Shown in pieces: positions 2,155 through 22,140 of a DNA stretch of 56,061 nt; within the stretch, counting starts at the first letter, position 1, and each line of letters starts with the position of its first letter. A program made the translations under genes and the position numbers. A model generated the notes under the pieces. The model had not been told where the DNA came from, did not search any database, and saw only the letters and a list, made by a program, of their open reading frames with translations. The stretch comes from a virus (taxonomy: Duplodnaviria > Caudoviricetes), in IMG/VR virus record IMGVR_UViG_3300005529_000044, positions 1-56,061 of that record; one strand, written 5' to 3'.

Positions 2155-3350
2155 AGCAGCGGCCTCCAGGCGTAGGTATCGGCCGAATCTTTGAGGCAGA
2201 TCCGGAGCGTGTCGGCGACGCCAGCGCCTCCTTGGACCACCGTATATTTGCCGCGGGCCGAGCTGTCGCAGGTGCCCTCAGCCTGGTTGGCGATCGTCGG
2301 TCCGGTGATCGTCGGAGCGCTTAGGCTCGGCGTTATGATCGTCGGACTGGTCTGAAACAGAGCCGGCCCGGATCCGCTCTCATCGCTCAGAACGCCGGCG
2401 AGCTGGGCCGAGGTCGTCGTAGCGAACACGCTCAGATTGTTGGCGACGTAGGCGATGGTGCCGCCGGTGCCGAAGACGACGGTCGATCCGTCCGTGCCCG
2501 ACAAGGTCACCGTGTTTGAAGCCGTGAAGGTCTTGCCGTCTGCAATGGTGAGCGTCGCCGCGGTGGCCGGAGCGGTGATCGTGACTTTATTGACTGTGGT
2601 CGCCGTGGCCGCTCCGAGCGTCGGTGTCGTGAAACTCGGCGAGACCGCGCGCGCGATCGCGCCTGTGCCTGTGTTGGCCGTCACTGCCACGCCGTTTACC
2701 AGAAAGCTGTTGCCGGCGCCCGCCGTGTCGAACGTCTTGTTGGTCAGTGTATCGGTGGTCGCGCGGCCGACCAGTGTGTCGGTCGTGCTCGGCAGCGTGA
2801 GAGTCCCGGTGTTGACAATCGACCCGATCACCGGAGCGATGAGGGTCTTGTTGGTGAGCGTGTCGGTGGTATTCCGCGCCACGAGCGTGTCGGTGGCGTC
2901 GGGCAGCGTAAGCGCCCGCGTGCCAGTCGGCGTGCCGGTCAGTCCGATGTAGGTCGTTCCGTATATTCCGGTCCCGTAGAGGTATAGGTTGCGGACCGGC
3001 TTGAGCGTGCTGCCGATATCGATGCCGGACTGAAACAACAGCGCTGCGTTGACCGAGGTCGTCGCCAGATTATCGAGGGCCGCCGACGCGCCCCCAGCGC
3101 CGCTATTCAGTTGCTGCGTCCACACGTTCGCCGTGGCGCATTCGTAGAGGTTCTGCCCGGCGGTGGCGTCGGACTTGAAGAACAGTTCTCCCACGCCGCA
3201 GGTGCCAGGCAGGGCGGTCCCCACCTTGGTCGGCCTAGTGCTGATGGCGGCCGATGCATCCACCGCTCCGAGCGCCGAGGCGTCTGAGACGCTGCGCGTC
3301 TGCGCGATGAGCGCGGCCGCACAGAACACGAAGCTGGCAAGAACCTTCAT
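2151..3350 (-). CDS. Signal-peptide-bearing tail fibre protein
   Basis: Start re-called at MKVLASFVFCAAALIA|Q. Two DTLV.R.TTDTLTNKT fibre-shaft repeats; Thr-rich; Cys-paired modules at both ends. Confidence 0.78.
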   Translation of the reverse strand: MKVLASFVFCAAALIAQTRSVSDASALGAVDASAAISTRPTKVGTALPGTCGVGELFFKSDATAGQNLYECATANVWTQQLNSGAGGASAALDNLATTSVNAALLFQSGIDIGSTLKPVRNLYLYGTGIYGTTYIGLTGTPTGTRALTLPDATDTLVARNTTDTLTNKTLIAPVIGSIVNTGTLTLPSTTDTLVGRATTDTLTNKTFDTAGAGNSFLVNGVAVTANTGTGAIARAVSPSFTTPTLGAATATTVNKVTITAPATAATLTIADGKTFTASNTVTLSGTDGSTVVFGTGGTIAYVANNLSVFATTTSAQLAGVLSDESGSGPALFQTSPTIITPSLSAPTITGPTIANQAEGTCDSSARGKYTVVQGGAGVADTLRICLKDSADTYAWRPLL

Positions 3351-3360
3351 GGATCTGGTC

Positions 3361-3729
3361 TCAATTTGCTGGCTTGCCTTCAAGCGGTACGGCTGCGGGC
3401 TTGAGGACGCAGATGTATTCGCCCTTTTCGTTCTGTTGCACGTTGAACCTGTCCCCGCATTCCTTTTGCATCTGGGCACCAGCAGCTTGGAGCGCCTGGT
3501 AGGCCTGGGCCCGGTCGTCGACCAGCTTCCGCATGGGTTCGCTCAGCCACTCGCGAAAGGTCGCGTCCGCGCGCTGGTACGCCCCGGCGGCCTTCTCGTA
3601 GGCGTACTTGGCCGCGATACTGATCTGCGGGTCTGGCGGAGACTTGGGCTTAAACGTTCCGGTGCTGTTGTCATCCTCTGCGAGCATTGGCAGGGCCACC
3701 AGAGCCAGAATCACGATTGCGCATTTCAT
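3361..3729 (-). CDS. Small exported helical protein, possible fibre chaperone
   Basis: Start re-called at MKCAIVILALVALPMLA|E after a GGAGGAAGAG RBS. Helical middle with a C-terminal Cys pair; directly follows the main fibre gene. Confidence 0.6.
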   Translation of the reverse strand: MKCAIVILALVALPMLAEDDNSTGTFKPKSPPDPQISIAAKYAYEKAAGAYQRADATFREWLSEPMRKLVDDRAQAYQALQAAGAQMQKECGDRFNVQQNEKGEYICVLKPAAVPLEGKPAN

Positions 3730-3746: not shown

Positions 3747-6700
3747 TCAGAAAGCTGATAAAGCCGCCCGGAAGCGGGCCCCGCCGAGGCAGACCACGAC
3801 GAAGTCGTCCGAGGTCACCGCCAGCCATCCGTCACTGACGCCGGCGCAGACGATGCCCGTGCTCGCTCCGGTCGAGCGCGTATAGAAATTGCCCGTCGAT
3901 CCGATCCACACGTTCGATACCAGGCCGCCCACTGGGGTGTTGAGTGGCCCCAGGAAGTACCGGTTCGAATCGATCACCGCAGTGCCGTTGACGAGGTAGG
4001 GTGCCAGGCCCGTGCCGCCGGCCATATTGATCGATCCGCCGGCGGAGATATCGCCTTGCCCGTTGACGATGAATGCGCCGCCGTTGGCGGTGTAGGCGGT
4101 GGTGAGGCCCGTCACGGTGGAGTTGAAGGCCCCGCCGCTCGCTACGACGTTGACGAACGTGGCGTTGCGGCTCGTATCGATGACGGTCGTACCTCCGACG
4201 CGGTAGGTTCCGCCGTCGAGCGTTCCGGAAAAATCGGCGTCCTGCGTCCATAGCTTCAGCCAGCGGCCGCCCAGATTCGATCCGAGACTGTAGGTCGCGT
4301 TCAGCGACGGCGTGAGCGACCCGGTGACGGTCTGGGAAATGTCCAGCTCCCGGACCCAGGCCTTTCCCCACCGGAAGGCCGAGCTACCGAGAGTGTACAC
4401 GTTGGCGGCCTGTGGGTTCACGTTTCCGTTGAAGTTGAAGAGCGTGGGATTGCCTCCGGAGAGCCGATCGTCCACCTGCAGCACGTAGGTTCCGGAGGAA
4501 TTCCGGAGTCCGACGACGTGAATTACCCCGCCGATCCCTTGTCCCATCGTCCAGTCGAAGAAATCGCTGACGGCGTCCGGCGTGCCGAGTTGGGTTCGTA
4601 GGAACCCGGCATCCACCGTTCCGCCGAAGTTGCCGTTCCGGAAGTATGCCGCGCCCCCGCTGTTCAGGCCGACATCGTTGGTCGTCGCCCCGGCCAGGCT
4701 GGCGGTCGCGCCGAAATTCTGCTGGCTGGTGAAGCTGTTGGTGATGTTCGTCCCGGCGATGATGTAGCTTGCGTTCTGTGGCGTGAGTGTGCGCTCCGTC
4801 GCGGTGCTGAATCCGTCCACCTCGAATCGCAGGAGTTTGGTGGCATCCAGGTTCCCGCGAACGATGTCTGTTGTATCCGGAACCGGCAAGCCGCCGCCGG
4901 CGCCGCATCCGCTACACGTCCCGGTCACGTCCAGGTCCGTCGCATAAATCTTGCGGATCCGCAGCGCGCTCGATCCGATGTCGTACGCATTCGTGGTCTG
5001 CGGCTGGATGTGGCCGAGGAATTGGAATAGCGTCGGGTCACCGGCGTTTCGACGGTCATCGATGTTGAGCACGTACTGGCCGCTCGAATTCCGGAGTCCC
5101 ACCACGTGCTGGACCCCGCCGATCCCCTGACCCATCGTCCAGTCAAAGAAATCCGTGGGCGCATCTGGAGTGCCGAGCTGCGTCCGCAGAAAGGCGGCGT
5201 CGACCGTGCGGCCAAAATTGCCGTCGCGGAAATACTTGCTGGCGAGCGCTTGGCCCACGTCGGCCACGGCGTCTCCGGCCAGGCTCGCAGTGTGCGTTTG
5301 CACCTGCGAAAACGTCTGCGCAATGTCCGTGCCCGCAATGGTGTAGCTGGCATCCTGCGGCGTCAGCGTCCGCGTGGTCGCCGTGGTGAAACCGTCTACC
5401 TCAAACCGCAACAGTTTGGTGGCGTCCGTCGATCCCTTGACCACGCTCGTCGTATCGACCACCGGCAGTCCGCCGCCTGATCCGCAACCGGTACACGTGC
5501 CGTTCACGGTGAGGTTGCCGACGATCAGGTTGCCGTTGCCGCCCATGTTGTCCCCGATCCGCAGCGTGCTGGCGGCGCTGCGAAACAATTGAGTGTCAGC
5601 CACCGGGAACGAGGCGAGATTCACGCCGCTATACCACAGGATGTAGGCATCCGAACTCATGTTGTAAGTCAGCGCCTGCGTGAGCGTCTTGACGGAGCCG
5701 CCGTTCACCGTATAGAGGCCGCCGCCCGCAAAGTAGGCCGTGCGGGTGCCCGCGTTATCGAGGAAGTCGACCACGGAATTGCCGGACTGGCTGGCGCCGT
5801 CCTGGATGGTGAGCGACGTAACCCCCGTGCCGGCCGTTTGATTCTTGAGCTTGAGAGAGCTGACCGCGTAGTTGGTCGAGGACAGGAAAACGTTGTTGTT
5901 CGCGTCGAGCGTCCACATGCTCGAGCCTCCTCCGCCCGTGCCTTTTGATTCGATCTGAACCAGTCCGGTAAACGGCGGATTGAAGCTGAAGACGAGGTCG
6001 CCTGACGTATTCCGCGTGTAAGAGCACAGCACGGCCAGCCTGGGCGTGGCGCTGTCGAAGCAATATGCTACGGGCAGCGTTCCCTGCCCGTGCGTAAGCG
6101 CCAACACGGTGAGCGACGTAGCCGAGGTGACCGTGGTCGTGTAGGGCGTGCCGGTGCCGCCGCCGCCCGAGCCGCATGTTTGAATCGACAGGTTTCCGGC
6201 GCCGTCGTCCGTCCAGCACCCTGCTTGGCTTTGGGAGGGCAACTTCCAGGTGACGTCGGCCGTCGCGGAATTGGGCGCGGAGAATCCGACATAATGCGCG
6301 GTCGCCGCCTGGTCCCGGAATCGCAGGTAGCCCGTGACGATCTCGTTTCCGGTCACCTGCAATTTTTGGCCGGTGGTGGGCGCTCCGCCCACTCCGACGT
6401 TTCCGGCAGAGTAGTAGATGTCGCTGCCCGAGATCACCCAGGGCTGCGTCCCGCCGCCACCCCCGCCGCCCGAACCGGACACGTTATCGACGGTCCAGAC
6501 GACGGCGCCCTGCGCGGTTCGCAGCTCGAGCTTATAGAGCGAACTTGACGAGAGCCAGATATCGGCGCGGCCCGCTCCGTCGAGGATGACCGGATTTGAA
6601 TTTGCCACGCTGGCACTCGAACTGGTGTAGGTGGCAAGCGGCGTGGTCGTGCCCGCCACGTAGGAGTAGAGCAAGCCTCCCACGATCGGGTTGCCGTTGT

Positions 6701-6815
6701 TATCGAGCCCGGTGAATTTGGGAGGCGGCGCGAGCGTGGCCTGGCCGGAGACGGCCGCCGCGAGCAGAATGGCTAGTCCGGCGGTGCGGGCGAGCCTGAA
6801 AAGCTCTTTTCTCAC
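3747..6815 (-). CDS. Main tail fibre (1022 aa) with podophage virion-attachment N-domain preceded by a signal peptide
   Basis: MRKELFRLARTAGLAILLAAAVSG|QATLAPPPKFTGLDNNGNPIVGGLLYSYVAGTTTPLATY...NPVILDGAGRADIWL...YKLEL...VWTVDNV. Gly linkers, internal duplication, and P..N.TY.LGS...RW..LW fibre repeats. Confidence 0.88.
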   Translation of the reverse strand: MRKELFRLARTAGLAILLAAAVSGQATLAPPPKFTGLDNNGNPIVGGLLYSYVAGTTTPLATYTSSSASVANSNPVILDGAGRADIWLSSSSLYKLELRTAQGAVVWTVDNVSGSGGGGGGGTQPWVISGSDIYYSAGNVGVGGAPTTGQKLQVTGNEIVTGYLRFRDQAATAHYVGFSAPNSATADVTWKLPSQSQAGCWTDDGAGNLSIQTCGSGGGGTGTPYTTTVTSATSLTVLALTHGQGTLPVAYCFDSATPRLAVLCSYTRNTSGDLVFSFNPPFTGLVQIESKGTGGGGSSMWTLDANNNVFLSSTNYAVSSLKLKNQTAGTGVTSLTIQDGASQSGNSVVDFLDNAGTRTAYFAGGGLYTVNGGSVKTLTQALTYNMSSDAYILWYSGVNLASFPVADTQLFRSAASTLRIGDNMGGNGNLIVGNLTVNGTCTGCGSGGGLPVVDTTSVVKGSTDATKLLRFEVDGFTTATTRTLTPQDASYTIAGTDIAQTFSQVQTHTASLAGDAVADVGQALASKYFRDGNFGRTVDAAFLRTQLGTPDAPTDFFDWTMGQGIGGVQHVVGLRNSSGQYVLNIDDRRNAGDPTLFQFLGHIQPQTTNAYDIGSSALRIRKIYATDLDVTGTCSGCGAGGGLPVPDTTDIVRGNLDATKLLRFEVDGFSTATERTLTPQNASYIIAGTNITNSFTSQQNFGATASLAGATTNDVGLNSGGAAYFRNGNFGGTVDAGFLRTQLGTPDAVSDFFDWTMGQGIGGVIHVVGLRNSSGTYVLQVDDRLSGGNPTLFNFNGNVNPQAANVYTLGSSAFRWGKAWVRELDISQTVTGSLTPSLNATYSLGSNLGGRWLKLWTQDADFSGTLDGGTYRVGGTTVIDTSRNATFVNVVASGGAFNSTVTGLTTAYTANGGAFIVNGQGDISAGGSINMAGGTGLAPYLVNGTAVIDSNRYFLGPLNTPVGGLVSNVWIGSTGNFYTRSTGASTGIVCAGVSDGWLAVTSDDFVVVCLGGARFRAALSAF
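4320..5477 (-). repeat. Tandem duplication of ~579 nt (193 aa) inside the tail fibre
   Basis: GGGLPV.DTT..V.G..DATKLLRFEVDGF.TAT.RTLTPQ.ASY...FLRTQLGTPDA..DFFDWTMGQGIGGV.HVVGLRNSSG occurs twice; anchors at 5461-5477 and 4882-4898. Confidence 0.92.
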
Positions 6816-6910
6816 ATAGCCCTCGATCAGCCTCTCGGCTGTTCCGGCCCTTACCGTCTCGCGACGTCAGGACCGCACTGGCTTTCGTAAAACAGTTTAC
6901 CCCAGAATTG

Positions 6911-7720
6911 TCATCTTCCAACTCCGACGAGCGACAGGCCTCCGCTGGGCGGGCCGGCCGGCGGGGCCGCCTCGTCGACTGCGAGAAAGACTGAGGCGCA
7001 ATCGACGGCGGTGCCCGTCGGATCGCTGGTGGCCGTGGTTCCCGTTAAGATCCGAAACTCGCCGCAGGCGTCCATGTTGCTGGCCGCGCCGCCCGCGTTC
7101 GATCCGTTACACGTGCTCGAGGTGAAATTCGTGGTCGCCGTCCACGTTCCCCCCGTGGCTCGCTCGAGCGCCGTTGCCCGCAGGAACAGATGCTCGGAGT
7201 TGGTGAGGCTGCCTACCGTCATCGATCCCGGATCTGCGGCGTCGTTGGCGAGATCCTGCGGCGTGCCGACGATCGAAACAACGTTGCCAGAAGTGATCTG
7301 GAATTCCTTCACGACGATGCCGCGCGCCGTGAGCGAGGAATGGTTTAGCGTGATGGTGCTCGTGCCGGAAGTAAGCTGCGTCGCGAGCTTGGAATAGAAC
7401 AGGCACACGGTCGCCCCGCCGGCCGCCGCGCCCTGGCCGTTGGTGAATTCGCGTAGCTTGGTCCAGGTGTTCGAAGCCGAGTCCTGGACCGATGTGCAAT
7501 CGGTGCTGTTTCCGTCCGTCGTCTGGACGTTGTCCATGCCCGCCCACAAGATCGCGACCTTGCCGGCCTCCATATTTTCGGTTGCGACGGTGCATGTTAG
7601 CGACGTGCCGGCGGTCTTCGAATTGGCCGTGCAAGTTCCAGCGTTACCCGCCCCAGTTCCCCAAGCCGCATGTGCCGGGATCGCAATGATGGCTACAAGC
7701 GCCAGGGACAGTCTTTTCAC
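6911..7720 (-). CDS. Signal-peptide-bearing beta-rich virion accessory/fibre-tip-like protein
   Basis: GTG start at 7720 after GGAG. MKRLSLALVAIIAIPAHA|AW; several Cys; C-terminal PPAGPPSGGLSLVGVGR. Confidence 0.7.
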   Translation of the reverse strand: MKRLSLALVAIIAIPAHAAWGTGAGNAGTCTANSKTAGTSLTCTVATENMEAGKVAILWAGMDNVQTTDGNSTDCTSVQDSASNTWTKLREFTNGQGAAAGGATVCLFYSKLATQLTSGTSTITLNHSSLTARGIVVKEFQITSGNVVSIVGTPQDLANDAADPGSMTVGSLTNSEHLFLRATALERATGGTWTATTNFTSSTCNGSNAGGAASNMDACGEFRILTGTTATSDPTGTAVDCASVFLAVDEAAPPAGPPSGGLSLVGVGR

Positions 7721-10132: not shown

Positions 10133-10182
10133 GCCCGAAGTCCTTTCTGCTTCCCAGCAGTAAGTTCAGTTCCGAGTGTACT

Positions 10183-13100
10183 TCAATTCACGCGCGCCCT
10201 CACCCGGGCGATCTGCTCGGTCATGAGCTCGCGCCGCGTGTCCTGATCCGCGCGCTGGTAAGCGGGGCTGGTAATCAGCCGGGCGAGCGCCTGCTTGATC
10301 GCGACTCCTTCGCGCGTCAGGCGCGCTTTGTATTGCCCGTCCGATTCTGGTTTCTGCCAGGTGGCGTTTGGATGCGCGGCGCGGCGCACCCGGAATTCTT
10401 CGAGCGTCTCGCCCTTCTTCTGTGGGCTGGTGGCCACGGGGACGCGGTTGGCAACCAGTTCCCGCAGGACGAAATCGCCCTGCTCCTTGGCCTTGCTGCC
10501 GATGGTCGGATCGAGGACGGAGCGCCATTCTTGCTTCAGCGTCTCTCCGAATAGGTCGACGCGCTCGGGAAGTTGGTTGCGCAGGCCGGGAATACGCTCG
10601 GCGATTTTCGCGCGGATCTGCTCGCCTGCCGAGGTCGAGCGGGTTTCGCGCCGGGATGTGTCGGCCGCCGCGGCAACGTCGGCGACGGCGGTGGGGATGA
10701 AAGAACCCGCGGTTGAGCCGACCAGCGTCGTGAACTTTCGCTCTGGCTCGTTTCCGGCCTCGACGACTCCACTCATACCCTTCAGCATCGGCTGCTCCAT
10801 CACGGTCTTTCCTGCGATTCCCGCTATGGCTGGAAGATCACCGCGCGCTACAGAATCGCGCTGGAGAGTTGCGCCAAGCACGATTAGGTTTCCGACAGGA
10901 GAGAACGCATCGATCCGGTGCCATTTGCCATTGATCAGGACGGAACCGTACATCCGTCCGGCGGCTTCGGCCACATCCCGTTGGCCCTTTTCGGCCTGGG
11001 ACGTTCCGGTTGCCAGGCCCTTCGAAGACAGCCAGTAGCCGAGCCACAGAAGCGCCGAACCGGTCAGTCCCCGTCCGATCGCGAGCGAAAATGCCCGCTG
11101 CGTTTCCGCGTTCCAGCCTTTCGCAGATATCACCCTTTGGATGGCTACGGCGCTGCGGCCGATGCCGCCCACGGGCGTGTAGTCGATGATTCTCGAAATG
11201 ATGTTTGAAGGCGTGCGCACGAACGGAACGGCCAGATCCATGGCCGCAACCAGTGCGCGGCCGCCGGGCGTTCCCGTCCGCAATAGCAGACCTTTTGCCC
11301 CAGCCCAGGCCTGCGCAATCAGATTGTCATTGTTGAACGTGGCGAACAGAGCGTCTTTCCACGCCTCCGCTCGCATGGCGTCGGTAGGTTCGGCCACGGC
11401 TGCCAGCTTCATGCGCTCCTGCAAACTGCGCTCGTAGGCGTACACCTTGAAGACTCGGTCCTCAGCTCCCATGCTCCGGAACACGGCGTTGATCGCCGTA
11501 TCGAATACGCGGTTTCCCGTATTCACCTCACGCGTGTAGTCGAGCTGCGACAGGTCTTCCCTGGTAGCGCCTTCCCTCAGAATCTGGAGGGCTTCGCGCA
11601 CTCCACGAGTCGCCGCAGCTTTCCCGGCCGCGGCCACCGATCGAGGGCTTGGACCCTGCACCGTCTTCTGCCCGCTGAACAGCTCGAGCGCCGAATCGAC
11701 GATCACGGAAGGCGCGCGACTCACTTCTTCGAGGACCTGGAATGCCGTGTTGCCGCCTAGGTTTCGGAGATGGGTCCGCACGCCAGTCAGGAGTCCCGCG
11801 CGTCGGAAGGCCATGATGGCTTCGAGCGGCCCCGTTTTTTCGAGCTTTGCGAGCTTCCGCGCCAGCTCGATCCGTGCCTGCTTGACGGCCGGATCGCTGT
11901 CCACTTCGGCGCGCTCGGCCGGAGACAGTTCCCATTTGGACGGCGCGCGCTCTTTCGTCACACCCGCCATCTTCTGCTGGATCAGATCGAGCACGCGCTG
12001 CTTGTAGCGGGCCTGCCGTTCGGCAAGGCTCGGTCCTTCGGCCGGGGGCGGGCCTGCTTCGACGCGCGCTTCTTGCTGGGCCTGGCGGATGCGGACGCGG
12101 CGCACGGCGTTTGCTTCAGCTTCCTGGCCGCGCGCGGTGATGCCCTGCACGTCTTTCAAAACTTCGGCGGGCAGCTCGGCTCCCTCCGGGATTCCGATCG
12201 CGCGGCGGGCTCGTGAGAGCCAGTAGGTTACGTCGAACGATCCCTCGGCCATCATCCGGTGATAAGCCAAGTTGCGGCCGTCCTGCGAACGCGTCGGGAT
12301 CAGCACGTCGACCAGGCGGCGGGCGTCCTGCTCCAGGCGCTCGATCTGATCGGTCAGGCGGGCGCGTTCGTCGCCGGTCATGTTGGGCGCATTGGCCGAA
12401 AAGGCCTGGCGCTTCTGTTCCAGTTCAACGTTCAAGCCGTTGAGGGTTTCCCGAGCCGCGAAGCGCACGGCCGGATCGAGCGTGTCGCCCTGCTTCATCT
12501 TCGACACGTCCAGCTTGTCGACGAGCGACGGATCGAGCTCGCGGGCCTGCTTTTGGATGTCGGCGAAGCTCACCACCTGGCGGGCGGGGTTGCGCTGTTC
12601 GAAGTCGGAAAGCCGCGTCTCCATCGCCGTGCGGACGGGCTCGCTGACCTTGGCCAGCAGGTTGGCTTTCGTCGCCTCGTAGGAAGGCGATGTGACCGGG
12701 CGCGACGGTTCTCCTGCGGTCGGTTTCGCGGGTGGCTGAACGGTCTCGCCGTAGCCGCCCTTGGCCATCTGATCGCGATGAAGCGCCTGGGCCCGCATCC
12801 AAACTTTGCCGAGATAGGGCCGGATCTCTTCGCCCAGGTCCCGGAGCATTTCCTCGGACCAGGCCTTGAACTTCACCGCGCCCTTGGCGATTTTGATCGC
12901 GCCCAGCGCCGCGTAGTCGGCGAGCTGCTCGGCGGCCAGGCCGGGGCCTGCGGAAAGCGTCGATCCGGCTTCCCGGACGCGCTTGGCCATGCGCTCTTTG
13001 ATTTTCCGCTCCGCAAAATCGAGCTTCGATATACTGGAGCTGCGGCCGGTGACCGAGGAAGACGGTTCGGTCCCCGGTAGGGCCTCGGTGACGCCGACAG

Positions 13101-15525
13101 ATGCGCCGGGGGCCGGTCGCTCGTAGGCCGTGAGCAGCCACTCCGGGGTTTCTTTTCCCTTGAAGTCGGCCGCGATCACTGCACGGTTTCCGTCTTTCTC
13201 CAGGACCTTGCCCACTGTGCGGCCGCCTTTGCCTTTGATCTCTTCGACGACGGGCATAGTCGAGATCTGGTCGACAATTCGGTCCAGGTAGCCAGGCCGG
13301 CGGGCGTCGATGTGAGAGACGCCGTAGCCCCGCAGCAACCGTTCTCCTTCGCCGGGCGTTCCGTACACCAGTCCAATCGACCCCACCTCCGGATGTTCGA
13401 TGACGCCGCGGGCGTGTCCCGCTTTTCGCTCTCGCAGCCAGGCGAGCGCGTCCTGCGGACGGTTTCGAAATTCGCGCGCAACGGGCCCAAAGTCGTCGGC
13501 TTCCCGGAATGCCTCCCGGAAACTCTCGGCCTGGCTGGGCGGCTCGATCCCTAGTAACTGCTGGCCGCCGGCGCCCATCTGAGCTTCGGATGCATATTGG
13601 CGGAAGGCCCGGGCGGCTTCCGTCGGCTTCTCCTGGAGCTTGCGTGCGATCGCAATGGCCGGTTCGGAATACTCGGCCGGCCCAAACATGCCGCGCTGCG
13701 CCACCAGGTCATCGATAGTCATGTCGCGCCGGCGCGCGTCTTCAAGCAGGCTCACGGCTTGCTTCGTGGCTCCGGTGATGTCCCAGCCTTCAAGGCCTTC
13801 GGTTTTGGCGAGCGGCGCGGCGACCCGTTCGAGCTTTTCGCGGAGCTGCGTCGGCGTATCGTCGAACTGCCGGGCGTCTTCGAACAGTCGGCCGATCATC
13901 AGCCGGCTCACGCGGGCTTTACCCTCGGCGGTGAGGCTGCCGTCCTGGTTCAAGAGCTTGGGCTTTTCCTGGTTGGTGATCACGCCATCGGATACGAGGC
14001 GTTCGACGATCGGCCGGGCGTCTCCAGAAAGCGCCTGGTTGAGCGTTCCTTCCGGTCCCTGCTGGTCGATCCTCCGGGTGATCTCGTCAAGCGTGGGCGC
14101 CGTCACGCGGCGCGAGTCGGCGATCGCGCGCTCGGCCTGGCGTAGCTCGGCGGTCCCCACTTTGTTGAAATCCGTGATGGCGGCCTGCGCGTCGGGCAGG
14201 TCTTGTGCGATTTCGCGCACCGGGTTCCTCTCGAAATTGTGAGGGTTGTGGGAAGGATAGACGTCCTCGGCCTCGCGCAGCGCGTAGACGGCCTGGTAGC
14301 GCTTGCGCTCGCCGGGGATCCGGACCTCGGTGTCCTTGCCATAAAGCGGCGGCGTGGCCGGCGGCCGCGGCTCGATCGTCGCGCGCTGATCGGCAGTCGG
14401 CGGAACTTCGGCCGTGGCTGTCTGCTCGGGCGGCGTGGTGGTGATCTCGGGTGCGGGAGCTGTAGGAGCTTCTTCCGTTTCTGCTGGGTGCTCCACCGGC
14501 TTGCCCGCGTAGCCCTTGCTCACAAGGTCATCGACCACGGCGCGGTCAGTGTCGCTCAGCCGCTTATAGGATTTGCCCGCGAGCGTGCGCGCCAGGTCCT
14601 CTCGCGCGCCTTCGATGCGTGTCTGAGCTTCGGGCACGCCTTCGGCGGGCGGCGCGGCTGTGGCGCGCCGCTGGCCGCGGTTCATCGGTGCCGGCCCGGA
14701 GGACGCGAGGAAGTCTTCGGGCGAGACGGTCCACGTGCCGGCCTTCTGGCGGATCGCGATCTCGCGGTTGGCGGCGGCGCGCTGCTCCGGATTGAACGTC
14801 GCGGCCGCCAGGTCTTCGTTTGAGGCCGCGCCCATCTCGTCCATCAGCTTCTCTTCGGGCGTGCGCGGCGTGCCCGCTGGGATTGGCTCAGCTTCTCGGC
14901 TGGCTGCATGCCGCAGACCGAGTGCGCTCATGCCGGCATTGAGCATTGCGCTCGTGAACAGCTTGGCGGCTTGGGGATAGTCGCCCGCGTCGACTGCCTT
15001 TCGAAACTCCTGGCTATCGCGGTAGGCCGATTCGAGCATCTGCGCGCTGAACCCGGCGCTTATGGCCTTGGGGAGCGCAGCTTTGACCAGCGGGAGCTTC
15101 AAGGCGAGCGCGCCCAGGCCTCCGGTTGCGACCTGGATCCCGACGTTTACCGGGTTGAGCGTCATCTGCTCGGCGAATTCCGCGCCGGCTTTCGCCACAC
15201 CGCCCGCCACGGTGGTGGGCTTTTCGGGGATGCCCAGCGCTTCCTGGATGATCGGCGGTGCGAGGCCAGCGGGTGTCGCCCGCGATTTGACATACGCCGG
15301 TGTTCCGGGCTTCGGCGCACCAGCGGCCTCGTTGCGAAGGCGGAACGCGGGCACGGCTTTGCTGGGTGGACTGATATTATCAGGCGGTTCTGTAGAAGGC
15401 GCGGCCTGGCCGAGGAAATCCTCGGGCGAGACTTTCCACGTTGTTTTTGATACGACGGGCTCCGAAGCCGAAGCGAGAAAGGCCTCCGGCGAAACGGTCC
15501 AGCTACTTTGTGACGGTGTAGCCAT
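10183..15525 (-). CDS. Large DNA-ejection/polyvalent protein (1780 aa) with ddrB-like ParB remnant, PBECR-like nuclease and LPD38-like C-terminus
   Basis: Third and largest gene after the tail genes, as for P22 gp16. Motifs YALREAEDVYPSH; IGLVYG...GYGVSHI...WLLTAYE; THLRNLGGN; VPFVRTPSNI. Confidence 0.78.
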   Translation of the reverse strand: MATPSQSSWTVSPEAFLASASEPVVSKTTWKVSPEDFLGQAAPSTEPPDNISPPSKAVPAFRLRNEAAGAPKPGTPAYVKSRATPAGLAPPIIQEALGIPEKPTTVAGGVAKAGAEFAEQMTLNPVNVGIQVATGGLGALALKLPLVKAALPKAISAGFSAQMLESAYRDSQEFRKAVDAGDYPQAAKLFTSAMLNAGMSALGLRHAASREAEPIPAGTPRTPEEKLMDEMGAASNEDLAAATFNPEQRAAANREIAIRQKAGTWTVSPEDFLASSGPAPMNRGQRRATAAPPAEGVPEAQTRIEGAREDLARTLAGKSYKRLSDTDRAVVDDLVSKGYAGKPVEHPAETEEAPTAPAPEITTTPPEQTATAEVPPTADQRATIEPRPPATPPLYGKDTEVRIPGERKRYQAVYALREAEDVYPSHNPHNFERNPVREIAQDLPDAQAAITDFNKVGTAELRQAERAIADSRRVTAPTLDEITRRIDQQGPEGTLNQALSGDARPIVERLVSDGVITNQEKPKLLNQDGSLTAEGKARVSRLMIGRLFEDARQFDDTPTQLREKLERVAAPLAKTEGLEGWDITGATKQAVSLLEDARRRDMTIDDLVAQRGMFGPAEYSEPAIAIARKLQEKPTEAARAFRQYASEAQMGAGGQQLLGIEPPSQAESFREAFREADDFGPVAREFRNRPQDALAWLRERKAGHARGVIEHPEVGSIGLVYGTPGEGERLLRGYGVSHIDARRPGYLDRIVDQISTMPVVEEIKGKGGRTVGKVLEKDGNRAVIAADFKGKETPEWLLTAYERPAPGASVGVTEALPGTEPSSSVTGRSSSISKLDFAERKIKERMAKRVREAGSTLSAGPGLAAEQLADYAALGAIKIAKGAVKFKAWSEEMLRDLGEEIRPYLGKVWMRAQALHRDQMAKGGYGETVQPPAKPTAGEPSRPVTSPSYEATKANLLAKVSEPVRTAMETRLSDFEQRNPARQVVSFADIQKQARELDPSLVDKLDVSKMKQGDTLDPAVRFAARETLNGLNVELEQKRQAFSANAPNMTGDERARLTDQIERLEQDARRLVDVLIPTRSQDGRNLAYHRMMAEGSFDVTYWLSRARRAIGIPEGAELPAEVLKDVQGITARGQEAEANAVRRVRIRQAQQEARVEAGPPPAEGPSLAERQARYKQRVLDLIQQKMAGVTKERAPSKWELSPAERAEVDSDPAVKQARIELARKLAKLEKTGPLEAIMAFRRAGLLTGVRTHLRNLGGNTAFQVLEEVSRAPSVIVDSALELFSGQKTVQGPSPRSVAAAGKAAATRGVREALQILREGATREDLSQLDYTREVNTGNRVFDTAINAVFRSMGAEDRVFKVYAYERSLQERMKLAAVAEPTDAMRAEAWKDALFATFNNDNLIAQAWAGAKGLLLRTGTPGGRALVAAMDLAVPFVRTPSNIISRIIDYTPVGGIGRSAVAIQRVISAKGWNAETQRAFSLAIGRGLTGSALLWLGYWLSSKGLATGTSQAEKGQRDVAEAAGRMYGSVLINGKWHRIDAFSPVGNLIVLGATLQRDSVARGDLPAIAGIAGKTVMEQPMLKGMSGVVEAGNEPERKFTTLVGSTAGSFIPTAVADVAAAADTSRRETRSTSAGEQIRAKIAERIPGLRNQLPERVDLFGETLKQEWRSVLDPTIGSKAKEQGDFVLRELVANRVPVATSPQKKGETLEEFRVRRAAHPNATWQKPESDGQYKARLTREGVAIKQALARLITSPAYQRADQDTRRELMTEQIARVRARVN

Positions 15526-16765
15526 CGGCGGTCAGGCGGCGCCGCGCTTCCTCGGCACTGATGCCGTTGGCCTGCGCGAAGGCAGCGAGACGGGACTCGG
15601 GAAACTGCTTTGACTGCCGGCCGGTCTTGGCGGTCGGAGCAGGCGTTGACGTCGATACCGACGTGTTCCCGGCCGGGGCCGCTGGTGCCTTTTCCTGGCG
15701 CGCCCAATTGTTATGCGGGACGGCCTGATTGGTCGCCGCGGCGACCTCGTTTTCATAGGCGTACTGCGCCGCGTCCATCCGGTCGACGTGCTGCTGCCAG
15801 GCGTCTTCGGGCTTGACGAGGGGATCCTTGAGATCTCGCAGGTACTGCGCCTTTGAGGCGGCCAGCGCCGCCGATTTCATGGCCTCGATTTGCGCTGCCT
15901 GTGCCGGGGCAAGCTTCTTGGCTTCCTCTGCCTTTTGCTCCATCGCCTTGTTGTGGCGTTTGGTTTCTTCGAGCTCGGCTTTGCGGATGTCGGCCTGTGA
16001 CTGCTGCTCGGGATTCAATCCCGCGGCGTTGGGCACCTTCGACGGCCGCGATTGGACCTCGGTCGCGGTGCGTTCCTTTGCTTCGGCTGTGCGCGCCTGC
16101 TCGCCTTCGATGCGCGCCTTCGATTCGGCCGCCTCCTGCTCTGCTTTGCGGCGGTTGAGCTCGTTGGTGATCTGCTGCTGGGCACCGAGCGCGGTATTGA
16201 CGTGAGTCTGGAGCCATTCATCTCCGGGATACTGCTCGGGGACATCTTCCGGTTTCACGTGGCCCGCGCGAATCAGAGCCGCGCGCGCGGTCTGGTAGGC
16301 TCGCGATCGCGCGGCCAGATCCCGGGCCGCCTTGTCTTGCGGGGTCTCGCCATCGACCGGCGGCGCTTGGGTTGAGAGCACAGCTTGCGCGGCGGATCCG
16401 ACGGCCTTCGTCTGTTTCTCGGCGTTTTCGAGCTCGTTCTGGGTCGCGGTGGCGATCTTCTGCTTGTGCGCGGCGATGATGTCGTCGAGCTTCTGCTGGT
16501 TGCGCGGCCGGACCTTCCCGCGCACCATGGCGGAAACTTTGTCGAGGTCTCCGCCTGACGCGCCGTAGGCCTGCTGGATCGCCTTCTGATCCTCGATGTC
16601 TTCGAGCTGCTCTTGCCGTTTGAGCGCCAAGTTGCGGGCTTCCTCTCCGCGGTAGGCTGCTTCGGCCATAGCGTTCTGAAGCTGCGCGGTCTGCATCAGC
16701 ACGTTGACGGGCGAAGCCACCTGCGGCGGCCGTACCTGCAACGCGATGGTCGGGTCAATAGGCAT
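15503..16765 (-). CDS. DNA ejection protein (gp20-like position)
   Basis: Start re-called at MPIDPTIALQVRP. A/Q/E-rich helical protein with an EETKRHN motif; middle of three ejection genes. Confidence 0.7.
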   Translation of the reverse strand: MPIDPTIALQVRPPQVASPVNVLMQTAQLQNAMAEAAYRGEEARNLALKRQEQLEDIEDQKAIQQAYGASGGDLDKVSAMVRGKVRPRNQQKLDDIIAAHKQKIATATQNELENAEKQTKAVGSAAQAVLSTQAPPVDGETPQDKAARDLAARSRAYQTARAALIRAGHVKPEDVPEQYPGDEWLQTHVNTALGAQQQITNELNRRKAEQEAAESKARIEGEQARTAEAKERTATEVQSRPSKVPNAAGLNPEQQSQADIRKAELEETKRHNKAMEQKAEEAKKLAPAQAAQIEAMKSAALAASKAQYLRDLKDPLVKPEDAWQQHVDRMDAAQYAYENEVAAATNQAVPHNNWARQEKAPAAPAGNTSVSTSTPAPTAKTGRQSKQFPESRLAAFAQANGISAEEARRRLTADGYTVTK

Positions 16766-16769
16766 CGGT

Positions 16770-17624
16770 CTAGGCGCCAGCGAACTGGAACTCGGAATCC
16801 GGGGAGACAAAGGGTGGCGTGCGAATCGAGCTCACTCCTCCCCGCATTCCAGCGGCGATGCGTTTGAGCGCGTTGAGCAACTGGAACTGCTGAAGCGCGT
16901 TCGATGCGCCCGACAGCGCCGAGCTCCAGACGTTGGCCTTCCCGACCGTTCCCGCGGCTTCGGCGTTGCCCTTTCCGGTGATCGCTTCGGTCTGCAATCC
17001 GGCTACGCGCAGCGGAATGTCGGAGGCGTATTCCTGGGCCTGGATGATGCGGCCGGCGTTGTCAGAGGCCATGCTTGCCCCCATGCCCGCGAGGTTCTGG
17101 AAACCCGCTGCCCGCGACAGCGCTGTCTGACGGTTTGTGTTGTAGGTGCCGAGCGCCCGCTCGAATGCCTGCTGGTAGGTCGTCTGGGCGAGACCCTGGG
17201 CGTACTGCTCGATTGCCTTCTGGCTCGCGCCGCCGCCTAGCTGTCCGCGGGCAGCTTGCGATCGCTGGAGCGCCTGTAATCCCTGATTGAGCGTCCACTG
17301 GTAGCCGGGGTCCTGTTCGAGGTCGCTGGGGTTGAACGCAAACTTGTCGGTGAAAGCGCCCGAGTTGAGCACGTTGAGCAGTTGCTTTAGGGCGGTCGAT
17401 CCCGCTTCGGTGTACGGCTCCGTCTGGGCGAGCGCCCGATCGACCGCAGGCTGGATTCCGGATTTCGCTTCCTCGCCGGCTTTGGTCGCTAGTTCGAGCG
17501 CTGCTTCTTCGGCCGAGGCCTGCTGGCTGGCAGCCTTGCCGGCGGCGTGCGAACCGATGAGTCCTCCGGCGACCGACGTTCCCACGGAGGCGATCAGCGG
17601 AATGAACGGGATTACGGCCGGCAT
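16770..17624 (-). CDS. DNA transfer/ejection protein (gp7-like pilot)
   Basis: Gly/Ala-rich N-terminus; DPGYQW.L.QG..A.QRS.AARG..GGG...A...Y.QGLA motif. Confidence 0.82.
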   Translation of the reverse strand: MPAVIPFIPLIASVGTSVAGGLIGSHAAGKAASQQASAEEAALELATKAGEEAKSGIQPAVDRALAQTEPYTEAGSTALKQLLNVLNSGAFTDKFAFNPSDLEQDPGYQWTLNQGLQALQRSQAARGQLGGGASQKAIEQYAQGLAQTTYQQAFERALGTYNTNRQTALSRAAGFQNLAGMGASMASDNAGRIIQAQEYASDIPLRVAGLQTEAITGKGNAEAAGTVGKANVWSSALSGASNALQQFQLLNALKRIAAGMRGGVSSIRTPPFVSPDSEFQFAGA

Positions 17625-18079: not shown

Positions 18080-19779
18080 GCCAGCACCGGTTGCCCGCTC
18101 ACGCTTGAGCTGGCCGGGTCCTTCAAAAAATGTCCGGCCCCGCCGCCACCGAGCAGATGATTGTTCCAGATCTTATTGACCGCGGCGGCGGTCCAGCCCG
18201 CGCCGGTCTCCTCGATACAATAATGGCCTCCGCCGTACTCGATCGTGTTTCCCTCGATGCGGTTGTCAAGGCAGAGCAGCTCGTTGCCCGCCCCGCCGGC
18301 GGCTGAGAAAAGCTGGATCGGCGCGGCCGAAGCATCCGCCCGGTGATAGATGGTGTTCTGGGCGCACCGGCATTGCTTGGAATATCCCATCACGATGGCG
18401 CTCACCCCGAAGTTCACCAGCGTATTGTCGAGGAAGGCGAGCAGGACGCTCCCGCCGTTCTGCTGCGAGTTGCCGGCGTTGATGCCGGTCGATGTGTTCA
18501 CGCCGTTCTGGTTCGGACCGAATAACCCGCAGCGGTCGGTTACATAGTCGCTGTCGCCTGGCTCCGGATTCTGGCCGACGTTTGAATGGATGGTCGCCTT
18601 GCGGTGGCCGTCGGTGTCGATGAAACTGCCATTCATCGACATCCCGACGTTTTTCGAATACTCGATGTTTTCTGAAAATCCTCCGTCGATGGCGGTCGCA
18701 AACAGACCGGCCAGATACTTGGGCTCGGCCTGGTCGACGTCGGTCTGGGTCATATAGCCCACGCGGTGGAGCTTGTTGCCGATCGCCGAGCCGACGCGGA
18801 CGTTGCCGACCAGAATCCCATCGAGGCCGATGTCCTCGAAATCGTTGAAGTCGCAGTGAACGCGCACATGCCGCGCATCGAAGCCCATGGTGTGACCCCA
18901 GAGGCAGTTGCCGGTCACGCGGCGCCAGTGGCAGCCGCTGACTTTGAGGCCCTTGACGGATGAGAGCTTGCCCTGCGCCGCCCGCCCATCCATTCTCCAG
19001 AACAGGCCTCCGGTCCAGGAGCCGTAGGTCTTGTCGGCCGGGTTGGTGCCAAAGCGGTGCGGACGGTTGTTTTTGAACCACCAGTCGAGCACCTCGGCAT
19101 CGGAGATATCGGCCGTGTCGGCGTCAAATAAAATTGCATAGCCGCCGGTGTGCTCGATCCATCCGGCGCGAAAGCGGATCCCGGAGCAGCCCGGATGCAC
19201 CCAGATGCTCGTGTTGGCGGTGAGCAAGGCGTGCATCGGATCGGATCCGAAGTCGGTGTAGAGCAGATCGGTCGCCACAGTGGTTGCGCCGTCGATGCGC
19301 AGATTCTCGAAAGCCACGTTCTGGACGTTGGTCAGGTTGAACAGCCCGCGGCCCGCCGGTAGTGCGCCGCCACGCCTAAAAGCGGAATTGTATCCCAGGC
19401 CGAGGATCGACACGTTCGAGGGCACGTCCACGTCAAGAATGTCATAGGGCTGCTCCTGCGGCGGAACCCATAGCACGCCTCCGCCTTGGCCGGTGATCCA
19501 GTCGAAAGCGGCCTTGAGGTTGCGCGTGTTGGCATCGGCGGCGCTGCCGGCCACCAGGCCAAAGTCGCGAACGTCGGCCAGCAGCGGCGGGAACTTGTCG
19601 CGGAGCGCCGCCATCGCGCTGGTGATCAGGCCATACCACTTTTGCCAGTCGGCCGAAAACGCCGCCTGCTGCAGATACTTGTCGAACTCCGGACTGCCGC
19701 TGCGGTTTAGGCCCGGAAAGCGGCTTGCGCCGAAAATCGGCGAACGTAGCGGCGCGGGATCGGCCGGAAGCTGGATCAA
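18076..19779 (-). CDS. Tailspike/depolymerase with right-handed beta-helix (pectate-lyase-3-like); no signal peptide
   Basis: TTG start overlaps the gp10-like stop. DVRDFG....AD.NT...KAAFD...GGGVLWVP motif followed by Asn/Gly-rich rungs. Confidence 0.82.
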   Translation of the reverse strand: MIQLPADPAPLRSPIFGASRFPGLNRSGSPEFDKYLQQAAFSADWQKWYGLITSAMAALRDKFPPLLADVRDFGLVAGSAADANTRNLKAAFDWITGQGGGVLWVPPQEQPYDILDVDVPSNVSILGLGYNSAFRRGGALPAGRGLFNLTNVQNVAFENLRIDGATTVATDLLYTDFGSDPMHALLTANTSIWVHPGCSGIRFRAGWIEHTGGYAILFDADTADISDAEVLDWWFKNNRPHRFGTNPADKTYGSWTGGLFWRMDGRAAQGKLSSVKGLKVSGCHWRRVTGNCLWGHTMGFDARHVRVHCDFNDFEDIGLDGILVGNVRVGSAIGNKLHRVGYMTQTDVDQAEPKYLAGLFATAIDGGFSENIEYSKNVGMSMNGSFIDTDGHRKATIHSNVGQNPEPGDSDYVTDRCGLFGPNQNGVNTSTGINAGNSQQNGGSVLLAFLDNTLVNFGVSAIVMGYSKQCRCAQNTIYHRADASAAPIQLFSAAGGAGNELLCLDNRIEGNTIEYGGGHYCIEETGAGWTAAAVNKIWNNHLLGGGGAGHFLKDPASSSVSGQPVLA

Positions 19780-21179
19780 GCGACCTCCGCATAGCCGTCG
19801 ATGAGCGTTGCCCTGCAGGGATCGCTCACGGTGAACTCGTAGACGCGATCGCGCGCGCGGCCCAGGCGATGCCAGTGCACGCGGGTGCGATACTCGCCCA
19901 GCCGGCCCAAAGAACGCTGGTGCTCGTTGCCCCACGTTTTCCCGCCGTCGTTCGACATGCGCATCACGATCTTTGGATCGTAGCCGGGCTGATCGGCCGC
20001 CACGTCCAGACCGACGCCGCGTTCGACTTCCACCTCGAGTTCCCGGTGGCTCAGAAACTTGTTTTCGCGCGAGATGTGCGGTGTGATCCGCATCCGTCGC
20101 AGCGGCGCGCCGGCGTCGTCCAAAAATTCGGGGCTTTGCTGGTAGATTTTGCCCGAGGCGAAGTCTCCGACAAAATGCTTGTTCCACACAAAAGCGTGGC
20201 AGCGCGCGCGATCGAGCTGATAGCGGCCCCGTTGCGGCGACCACAGGCCCCGCTCGTGCCAGGCGATCTCGCGCGGCAGCAGCGCATCGTATACGAAACT
20301 GCGCTCGGCCGAAGGAAAGTGGCAGACGAGGAAGAAGTGGCCGTGATCCTCGTAGGAGAAAAATTCCGCGTCATCCAGGCGCGCGAAGCTCGCAATCGCG
20401 TCCTCGATGGCGTGGTTGCTGATCCGCACCGGCTGGTACCCGTCGGCGCGCCAGACCACACTCTGGCCGCGCGCTGTCGATCCCAGCCAGGCTGGCCCGG
20501 TCGGCAGAATCGCAATCGCCCAGGGCGAGGCCACGCCCTGTTCGATAAAGGCGGCATCGATGCGCTCAAACGGAAACAGCGCCGCCCCGGTGTCCTGATG
20601 CACTTCAATCGAGTCGAACCCGAAGATCCAGAGCAGCCGGTGATCGGCGAGCAGCGCAGCGATGTAGTCCGGATAGCCTTCCTTGTCCGCCACGTCGAGC
20701 GGATCCCAGGCCGCGCCATCGAGCGAAATCCGGTATTGCTTCGAATTCGGAGTCGAGGCGATATAGTAGCCATCGATAAAGGTCCCCGTCGAAGCCGGCA
20801 CGACCGGCACCACCACCACGCCGTTGGCGAGATAGCCCTGCCCCTCGCTCGTGATGAAGATCGAATTGCCGTTGAGCACCATGCGCACCGGATTCGGCCC
20901 ATTGCCCACGTCGCCCAGGACAGTGAAACTGCCGTCCTCGAAGACTTCACACAGCTTGGCGCCGGCCACGGCGAACAGCCGCTTGTTGCCGGCGAGCAAG
21001 CCGCGCACCGGCTGGTCCGGCAGCGTGCACAAAAGCTTGCGTCCGGGCGTCGGGACGAGCCGGATGGAGCTTTTGCCTGCCGGAGCTTCGACCAGTTCGG
21101 GATACCAGTTGACCGTGCGTTCTCCATCCGCAGCCTTGGCTTCGAGCTCGTAGGTTCCGCCGATGATCGGGATTCTCAA
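19776..21179 (-). CDS. P22 gp10-like packaged-DNA stabilisation / tail hub protein
   Basis: TTG start after GGAGG. TVNWYPE...L.PTPG, DGYYI, RISNHAIE, SNDGGKTW and GEYRTRV.W.RLG.ARDRV motifs. Confidence 0.9.
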   Translation of the reverse strand: MRIPIIGGTYELEAKAADGERTVNWYPELVEAPAGKSSIRLVPTPGRKLLCTLPDQPVRGLLAGNKRLFAVAGAKLCEVFEDGSFTVLGDVGNGPNPVRMVLNGNSIFITSEGQGYLANGVVVVPVVPASTGTFIDGYYIASTPNSKQYRISLDGAAWDPLDVADKEGYPDYIAALLADHRLLWIFGFDSIEVHQDTGAALFPFERIDAAFIEQGVASPWAIAILPTGPAWLGSTARGQSVVWRADGYQPVRISNHAIEDAIASFARLDDAEFFSYEDHGHFFLVCHFPSAERSFVYDALLPREIAWHERGLWSPQRGRYQLDRARCHAFVWNKHFVGDFASGKIYQQSPEFLDDAGAPLRRMRITPHISRENKFLSHRELEVEVERGVGLDVAADQPGYDPKIVMRMSNDGGKTWGNEHQRSLGRLGEYRTRVHWHRLGRARDRVYEFTVSDPCRATLIDGYAEVA

Positions 21180-21373
21180 TTGAGGCCCAGCCTCCAGTTG
21201 ATTTCCTGATTCGTTTCGTCCAGCTCGATAAACAGACGCGCGTATGGTTCCTGGATCTGTTGGCCGCACCCGGCGCAATGCACCGGGCCGCAGTGCGTAA
21301 CCTTCATCGAAACCAGATGGCTCGCGCGGATCTGCCCTGTTGCCCGGATTTCTCGCGGCTTGAACTCTTCCAT
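21176..21373 (-). CDS. Small hypothetical protein with CxxC
   Basis: Tightly coupled to both neighbours; HCAGCG. Confidence 0.55.
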   Translation of the reverse strand: MEEFKPREIRATGQIRASHLVSMKVTHCGPVHCAGCGQQIQEPYARLFIELDETNQEINWRLGLN

Positions 21374-21375
21374 GG

Positions 21376-22140
21376 CTACCGATAGCTCCCCAGGCGCACG
21401 TCGAACCGGTTGTGCCGGCCGTAGCGGAACCGCGTGTAGCCGACGTCGTTGATGAGTGTGGTGCGATTTGCCGCCGCGTTCTTGGCCTTGATGACCGCCT
21501 TGGCGCGTTTCGCTTCCTCGACGACGTAGGGCTGCAATTGCGATTTGGGGTAGAGCACGGCCAGCTCGAGCGCCAGATTGTATTCAAGGGCGTGCTGGTA
21601 GCCGGGCATCAGCCGGATGGCTGCGTTTGGATCCGCAAACTGCTGGACCGATTCCGGGAAATAGAGCGCCACGGTATTGACCGTCGTCGGGATCGGCCAG
21701 GGCGTGATGACGCCCAGGTCCGCCTCGGGGCGGTAGTAGAGCGCCAGCGGCTCAGATGCGAGCTCGCTGTTGTTCATGATGCCCGAGTACTCTTCGGGTG
21801 TGGTGACCCACAGCGGAACCTCGATCGATTGCGTGTTGGGCAGGATGAGCCCGGCGCGCAGCAGATCGACGGGCGGGCCGCCTGCGGTCACCCAGTCGGG
21901 GTTATCCGCCTGGTCGCCGATCGTGTACGACGGCTTGTTCGGCGTCAAGGGAAACGTCGCGCGGTTTTCGGCCCATACGAGCAGCTCTTCCAGTTTCCAG
22001 GAATCGATCAGAGAATTGAGCGTCTGGACGTCCTCGATTGCGAGCGAGTTCGTATTGGTCGGCTGATGGTACTTCCGGCCCGGAGCAGTGGTGATTCGCG
22101 CCAGGCGGCGGGCCTTCATCGCGATGTCGAGCGGCGTCAC
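21376..22140 (-). CDS. P22 gp4-like head-tail adaptor, paralogue 2
   Basis: LNSLIDSW, YTIG, WPIP, PGYQHALEYNLALELA. Confidence 0.82.
   Translation of the reverse strand: MTPLDIAMKARRLARITTAPGRKYHQPTNTNSLAIEDVQTLNSLIDSWKLEELLVWAENRATFPLTPNKPSYTIGDQADNPDWVTAGGPPVDLLRAGLILPNTQSIEVPLWVTTPEEYSGIMNNSELASEPLALYYRPEADLGVITPWPIPTTVNTVALYFPESVQQFADPNAAIRLMPGYQHALEYNLALELAVLYPKSQLQPYVVEEAKRAKAVIKAKNAAANRTTLINDVGYTRFRYGRHNRFDVRLGSYR

Follow-up and report, generated by a model that had tools for sequence, protein, structure and literature searches.

A podophage tailspike gene with a predicted Sec-type signal peptide directly ahead of its head-binding domain

Can a tailed phage send its tailspike through the host's Sec pathway and still mount it on the particle? 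The question is raised by a gene at positions 3747-6815 of a 56,061-nucleotide (nt) stretch of soil-phage DNA (Duplodnaviria; Caudoviricetes), which is the whole of the linear IMG/VR virus record IMGVR_UViG_3300005529_000044 (CheckV completeness 87%) and is called the window below. The original prediction, made from the letters alone, had read the product as a signal peptide grafted directly onto a podophage virion-attachment domain. Comparison of this protein (P0001, or simply the spike) with its relatives gives good support to the view that it is exported and cleaved, which we regard as highly probable. The fuller proposal, that the gene encodes a tailspike/fibre precursor from which a Sec-type signal peptide is cleaved and that docking follows export in a two-compartment assembly, is one whose chances we judge to be about even. 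The parts of the gene that bear on these questions are as follows:

3747-6815, minus strand: spike open reading frame (ORF), GTG start 6815-6813, stop 3749-3747, 1022 amino acids (aa)
6820..6824, minus strand: Shine-Dalgarno (SD)-like GAGGG, 4 nt upstream of the GTG start, read from the sequence
6744..6815, minus strand: leader, aa 1-24, with n-region MRKELFRLAR (net +3), h-region TAGLAILLAAAV and c-region VSG; cut predicted after G24
6477..6743, minus strand: tailspike head-binding domain, aa 25-113, beginning at the predicted mature N-terminal Gln25; from sequence and fold matches
6450..6476, minus strand: Gly-rich linker GSGGGGGGG, aa 114-122
3750..6449, minus strand: fibre or receptor-binding part, aa 123-1022

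The coordinates 3747-6815 proved correct, on the minus strand, and the translation (MRKELFRLARTAGLAILLAAAVSG up to the predicted cut, then QATLAPPPKFTGLDNNGNPIVGGLLYSYVAGTTTPLATYT...NPVILDGAGRADIWL) agrees with the earlier reading. An in-frame stop (TGA 6869-6867) lies upstream of the start. The claim that no alternative canonical start separates the leader from the domain also stood: codons 2-44 lack ATG, GTG and TTG and hold only ATT16, CTG17 and ATC44, while the next start-type codons, GTG45 and TTG48, fall within the docking domain and are not preceded by an SD sequence. GC content at third codon positions is 0.81, like that of the other coding frames of the window.

The leader has the make-up of a Sec/signal peptidase I substrate, with a positive n-region, an uncharged h-region of ~10-15 residues and small residues at -3/-1. 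The twin-arginine translocation (Tat) motif is S/T-R-R-x-F-L-K, and a lipobox has Cys at +1; aa 1-24 contain no RR, hence no Tat twin arginine, and there is no lipobox Cys, the first Cys of the spike being residue 200. The charges flanking the h-region (+3 before, neutral after) predict an N-in/C-out topology. An AlphaFold2 model of leader plus domain (4-sequence alignment) showed a helix over aa 3-21 and disorder beyond it, at low confidence (predicted local distance difference test, pLDDT, 58), and was kept out of the fold search. Contigs from a second, independent study match 6586-6960, which covers start, leader and junction, with zero differences; since the junction moreover recurs in the family, as described below, it is neither chance nor an assembly artefact. 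Sequence-cluster members of P0001 are identical or fragments, so that they hold no leader variation to read.

What follows the leader is a tailspike head-binding domain. Spike aa 37-113 match residues 13-91 of the PDB 7EEQ 'Tailspike head-binding domain' (E 1.2e-8 for the full-length query, 4e-10 for aa 25-125), and the 24-residue offset between the two equals the leader length. The Foldseek listing names 7EEQ as the Pam1 tail machine, and a figure legend in PMC13730344 gives it as cyanophage Pam1. The segment aa 25-113 further matches the N-termini of annotated tailspikes/fibres in 33-40 kb phage genomes (29 phage records), as well as phrog_26190. An AlphaFold2 model of aa 25-125 (30-sequence alignment) reached pLDDT 89, and its best Foldseek matches were Pan3 9VYG (E 7e-6) and Pam1 7EEQ_A (template modelling (TM) score 0.73, root-mean-square deviation 1.5 A), followed by the P22 gp9 head-binding domain (2VKY; 1LKT TM 0.65), in-situ P22 gp10:gp9N complexes and Sf6 gp14N; Pantoea WceF (6TGF) came at rank 32 as a weak match (E 0.23, TM 0.47). 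The earlier naming of a P22-like podophage docking domain therefore holds for the fold, on the strength of the P22 gp9 match, whereas the sequence type is instead that of Pam1/Pan3. The matches are phage tailspikes rather than cellular secreted proteins only, although WceF does keep a head-binding-like domain. Only once the 24-aa leader is removed does the domain stand at the extreme N-terminus of the spike.

The likeness to Pam1 (7EEQ), Pan3 (9VYG), P22 gp9 (1LKT) and Sf6 gp14 thus consists of a shared fold, with sequence homology detectable for Pam1 and Pan3, and it extends to the position of the domain at the N-terminus of a modular spike, to a gp10/nozzle-type partner gene and to gene order after the ejection proteins. 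The difference is that the spikes of Pam1, Pan3, P22 and Sf6 start at the domain's Met1 and are cytoplasmic, whereas the window's spike has a 24-aa Sec-type leader first.

How often does this arrangement recur? In a first protein search, a hydrophobic leader was present in 4/120 similar-length homologues (P0001, P0035, P0086 and P0111). Among viral contigs it was found in 1 of the best 80 loci (L036, identical at its N-terminus to P0161); a whole-protein scan of the viral contigs returned one relative, which was leaderless, and scans of them with the leader-bearing relatives P0111 and P0035 found no close gene context. Searching 1.84 billion representatives with a profile that combined leader and domain yielded a family of 27,973 members (E <= 0.001). 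Among the 150 best-ranked family representatives, at least 74 have a classical leader immediately before the domain, in a ranking biased toward leaders because the search profile itself contains one. These leaders are independent, differing in sequence and sharing the common n/h/c form.

A pooled set of 248 parsable members (77 leader-bearing, 171 leaderless) revealed a number of regularities: firstly, [AGST]-Q follows the h-region in 75 of the 77 leader-bearing relatives, with A (52), G (16), S (6) or T (1) at -1; secondly, 21-24 residues separate this Q(+1) from the domain core in 61/75 leader-bearing relatives, and 21-25 residues separate Met1 from the core in 156/171 leaderless ones; thirdly, the domain contains exactly two Cys in 45/77 leader-bearing versus 1/171 leaderless members, and Cys replaces the Tyr of 'GGKLYTY' (the LY/LC position) in 40/77 versus 0/171. 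Because the Q(+1) and Met1 distances agree, the predicted cut would restore the canonical N-terminus within a residue or two, and the leader is joined, as had been proposed, directly to the docking domain, at the very point where relatives that lack it have their Met1. When 24 leader-bearing proteins are aligned, all of them share Gln25. The paired Cys fit a signature of folding in an oxidising compartment, as far as sequence can tell. On a FastTree of the domain (183 rows, after near-duplicates and 11 loci without the anchor motif were dropped), leader state changes 16 times on the best tree, at least 3 of these changes being forced by well-supported branches, compared with ~60 for shuffled labels. 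Recurrence in at least 74 of 150 representatives, a +1 Gln spaced like Met1 and Cys pairs nearly confined to leader-bearing members together indicate that the leader is not a mis-called start.

Cysteines are also paired in the fibre part of the spike. All ten of its Cys fall into close pairs, five in number (200/214, 252/264, 441/444, 634/637 and 990/1009), a degree of pairing equalled by only 15/200,000 random placements, though two of the pairs belong to a duplicated unit. This unit of ~193 aa occurs at aa 450-642 and 643-835, each copy after a CxxC-Gly motif, and the duplication is visible at DNA level (4395-4646 vs 4983-5234, 70% nucleotide identity over 252 nt). The motif preceding each copy, G-T-C-x-G-C-G-x-G-G-G, is present too in the relatives P0111 and P0161. 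Two more Gly linkers occupy aa 215-223 and 292-299.

Leader-bearing spikes are concentrated in one host phylum. Scanning one genome for each species turned up 51 loci, in which the leader was called by inspecting upstream frames. It was present in all eight Acidobacteriota loci (Bryobacteraceae x2, Ca. Sulfopaludibacter, Ca. Acidiferrales, Ca. Angelobacter, 'gp2' and Vicinamibacterales x2; taxonomy checked), in one Hydrogenedentes locus and in two Alphaproteobacteria loci, including that of the isolate Methylobacterium persicinum NBRC 103628; one Iamiaceae locus has a possible leader with an unclear start. It was found in 0/7 Bacteroidota and 0/3 Bdellovibrionaceae loci and was absent from most Proteobacteria loci. 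A Bacteroidetes host, suggested initially by the +1 Gln, was dropped in favour of Acidobacteriota on these counts (8/8 versus 0/7), and the three Bdellovibrionaceae matches, entertained as mosaic adhesive trimer (MAT) fibres, were rejected as such, all being leaderless spikes in prophage context. The window encodes an integrase and ParB, which makes the phage temperate, and it is probably a P22/Pam1-like podophage with an Acidobacteriota host.

By tblastn, nozzle, ejection, internal or portal genes homologous to those of the window are present in 7/8 Acidobacteriota loci, located upstream of the spike in six loci, with the nozzle homologue downstream in L101. These structural genes mark the Acidobacteriota spikes as prophage tailspikes, not stray cellular genes. 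Genes adjoining the spike in the Acidobacteriota prophage loci also carry leaders by a heuristic call, while none do in five leaderless comparison loci. Three whole genomes, including those of Candidatus Sulfopaludibacter and Methylobacterium persicinum, have one domain copy each. Among 301 Acidobacteriota genomes the domain occurs in one, the query-centre genome itself; with 0/300 others, it is not a common cellular family in the phylum. The locus L119, the prophage of M. persicinum NBRC 103628, has its leader-bearing spike at 9941-13214 (predicted cut ...PASA/ATLLPPG, marked by the slash), followed by a second leader-bearing protein of 660 aa. As this prophage resides in a cultured, harmless isolate, the question of export and docking is testable at the bench.

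The genomic setting of the spike gene is that of a podophage structural module:

Minus strand: podophage late operon of terminase, portal, scaffold, major capsid protein, two adaptor-like genes and nozzle gene
Minus strand, operon continued: DUF2824/gp14-like gene, ejection proteins and 1780-aa internal virion protein, then the block holding the spike gene
19776..21587, minus strand: nozzle/hub gene, a P22 gp10-type 'stabilization protein' and the expected spike-docking partner; true start probably downstream of 21587
10183..17624, minus strand: ejection and internal virion protein genes, which precede the tailspike slot

The nozzle ORF matches the 'Needle head proteins' (nozzle chain) of 7EEQ (E 4e-21) and the 'Stabilization protein' of 9VYG (E 7e-15), and the gene is conserved beside leader-bearing spikes in related loci. 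The order of internal proteins and then tailspike matches that in Xanthomonas phage PBR31. Only one copy of the docking domain is present within the window. A Pfam search gave no match for the spike, nor for most neighbouring genes.

Conservation of the domain, the syntenic tailspike slot and the presence of a Pam1-type nozzle gene lend moderate support to docking after export; in the same direction point the conserved residues, the held position of the N-terminus, the standing of the spike as sole docking-domain gene and the limitation of leaders to exterior parts. Under the two-compartment proposal, translation would begin at GTG 6815, the leader would carry the unfolded chain through SecYEG, and signal peptidase I would cut after Gly24 to leave Gln as the mature N-terminus. 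The spike would fold, trimerise and make its disulfides in the periplasm while the cytoplasm built DNA-filled particles without spike; lysis would then mix the compartments, and the head-binding domain would clip onto nozzle/adaptor. Before lysis, periplasmic spike may act on the cell's own surface polysaccharide. P22-type tailspikes attach last and can be added in vitro to tailspike-less heads.

More tentatively, and with less confidence than for this one gene, the scheme may extend to Acidobacteriota podophages at large and sporadically to others, whose core (portal, capsid, adaptor, nozzle, ejection) would be cytoplasmic and whose tailspike, accessory fibres and post-capsid protein would be Sec-exported, trimmed to Gln, disulfide-bonded and joined at lysis. 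If true, a spike that crosses the inner membrane before docking would be a new assembly route, set against the textbook view of assembly in the cytoplasm only, and would explain disulfide-stabilised, N-terminally capped exterior proteins in phages of soil bacteria. Even on cautious readings, these proteins form a large class of exported receptor-binding proteins of phages that has gone unrecognised and is linked to a host phylum that has received little study, and the sequence rule of leader, +1 Gln and docking domain could aid host prediction.

Secretory or signal-arrest-release (SAR) endolysins are phage proteins that use host Sec. Passages of PMC10367356 report that Porphyromonas gingivalis phages encode secreted proteins of unknown function with Q-rule leaders. 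Such proteins resemble the spike in being phage-encoded, with host-adapted Sec leaders and Gln at +1 (passages of PMC10367356 and PMC10653852); they and the endolysins differ in being proteins of unknown function or lysis proteins, whereas the window's spike is a virion attachment-type protein. In passages of PMC5837995 and PMC10653852 the +1-Gln 'Q-rule' is described as exclusive to Bacteroidetes, a claim on which the present finding bears.

Several points weigh against docking after export. Tailed-phage virions assemble in the cytoplasm, and we found no literature precedent for a tailed-phage virion part that arrives via Sec; a search that mostly left out subscription journals and supplements found no paper on a tailed-phage tailspike or fibre with a secretion signal. 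The signal-peptide calls are rule-based. The docking domain of P0001 is without Cys. A Met at the domain start, absent from P0001, is found in 30/77 leader-bearing versus 10/171 leaderless members and could give a cytoplasmic isoform by internal initiation in leader-bearing relatives. The contig being 87% complete, a second spike could sit in the missing part. The ORF 18076-20244 (minus strand) is leaderless, lies in the slot that holds the tail needle in P22 and faintly matches pectate lyase A (E 0.075). It possibly encodes a second protein for receptor binding, or a depolymerase, located in the cytoplasm; because its listed start overlaps the nozzle gene, translation probably begins further downstream. 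Lastly, an exported relative of tailspikes in Pantoea stewartii, WceF, indicates in the passages of PMC7949094 that a docking-type domain can persist in an exported non-virion protein.

WceF lends weight to the strongest alternative, to which we would give perhaps half the credence of the two-compartment proposal: the spike would be exported and would serve outside the virion, as a periplasmic or surface polysaccharide-modifying enzyme or adhesin (in lysogenic conversion, superinfection exclusion or release), its domain being kept for folding or trimer stability. According to passages of PMC7949094, WceF is trimeric, has a Tat signal directly before a P22-like head domain, and aggregates without this domain, which is needed for solubility. 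It shares with the spike the order of signal peptide and then, directly, a tailspike head-domain-like fold (passages of PMC7949094), and differs in being chromosomal, in an exopolysaccharide gene cluster, Tat- rather than Sec-dependent and without adjoining phage partner genes; its fold match is weak. The MAT fibres of Bdellovibrio also fit this alternative, with a signal peptide, a conserved beta-rich N-domain, a ~1000-aa trimeric surface fibre and swappable tips; their N-domain (~130 aa) was reported to have no PDB homologue (passages of PMC10769870). They differ from the spike in being cellular, multicopy and surface-anchored, a separation made here from their description in those passages. 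The fibre modules of P0001 occur behind signal peptides with other N-modules, and many genes neighbouring the spike are predicted to be exported too. Against these stand the synteny of the gene, which occupies the tailspike slot within a complete podophage module, and its being the sole docking-domain gene both in the window and in three whole genomes. The residues invariant in the 24 leader-bearing proteins are consensus positions in a mixed leaderless/leader-bearing alignment too, the mature N-terminus is kept at the canonical position, and the domain is rare in Acidobacteriota genomes (1/301). In a Bdellovibrionaceae sample, the domain query found a single prophage copy in 1/7 genomes, whereas MAT genes are expected to be multicopy.

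Somewhat less likely still is a dual location, in which unexported precursor or an internal-start isoform builds the virion and the exported pool does other work, for example removing receptor or capsule ahead of release. Other phages make a free depolymerase alongside a virion-bound spike. The enrichment of a domain-start Met in leader-bearing relatives would suit such an arrangement, as would the start-type codons right at the leader-domain junction in L119 and L087, but P0001 itself has no ATG, GTG or TTG in codons 2-44 and GTG45 is not preceded by an SD. A hydrophobic leader left uncleaved would, in addition, sit on the docking domain, and the paired-Cys pattern fits folding in an oxidising compartment.

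Close to refuted is the idea that the leader is an annotation artefact, the real start lying downstream or the ORF extending by chance through an Ala/Leu/Val-rich high-GC stretch: ORF calling always takes the first possible start, and spurious high-GC frames are often hydrophobic, as in the plus-strand frames of the window, but no canonical start precedes codon 45 and initiation at that codon would cut the domain short, the GTG has an SD-like site in front of it, independent leaders recur in at least 74 of the best 150 representatives with +1 Gln in 75/77, and Cys pattern and host phylum both correlate with leader presence.

The spike is not the only leader-bearing product of the window. Similar signal-peptide-like leaders stand at the start of about 12 further late genes, and most of them end in [AG] before Q (cuts again marked by a slash):

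2-934, 931-2154, 2151-3350 and 3361-3729, minus strand: four downstream leader genes, the first three ending A/Q; neighbours' stop and start codons overlap
6911-7720 (AHA/A), 7738-8028 and 8006-9823, minus strand: upstream leader genes
23488-23907 and 23937-24659, minus strand: leader genes following the capsid gene
51686-52228, 52225-52713 and 53584-55881, minus strand: leader genes at the far contig end

Portal, scaffold, capsid, adaptors, nozzle, ejection and internal proteins have no leader; leaders in the window are confined to exterior or add-on late proteins. In several of the leader-bearing proteins (e.g. 931-2154), all Cys lie in close pairs. The gene directly after that of the major capsid protein (23937-24659, minus strand, 240 aa) has a leader ending VSG/Q, and its family divides, like the spike's, into leader-bearing forms and leaderless forms starting 'MA.N.TTLSAAI...'; one leader-bearing member is labelled by its source as coming from a Bryobacteraceae metagenome-assembled genome. 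PDB searches with this ORF, 18076-20244 and 22150-22911 returned nothing significant.

The 605-aa ORF 8006-9823 (minus strand) has a ~120-aa coiled-coil N-terminus, an internal signal-anchor-like segment (MRLGRFLRLASPLAVLFVIAANAQGQ) and a repeat-rich part ('VKVDGSGVTQPVSGT'), and its product looks, from its sequence, like a protein of type II membrane topology. At the far contig end, a small lysozyme/transglycosylase-like gene (52710-53084, minus strand; phrog_873) is followed by the leader-bearing 52225-52713 and 51686-52228. These three genes are a possible lysis block, although neither a holin nor a spanin was recognised.

The C-terminal fibre modules of the spike recur behind signal peptides in proteins P0390-P0449 together with another N-module, 'Q.TPLTV...GSATGE.RL.ERR.NG.NYVG', which P0001 itself has as its second module (about aa 150-200). 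Among 120 listed fibre-module matches, the first 60 were examined, and 37 of these look leader-bearing.

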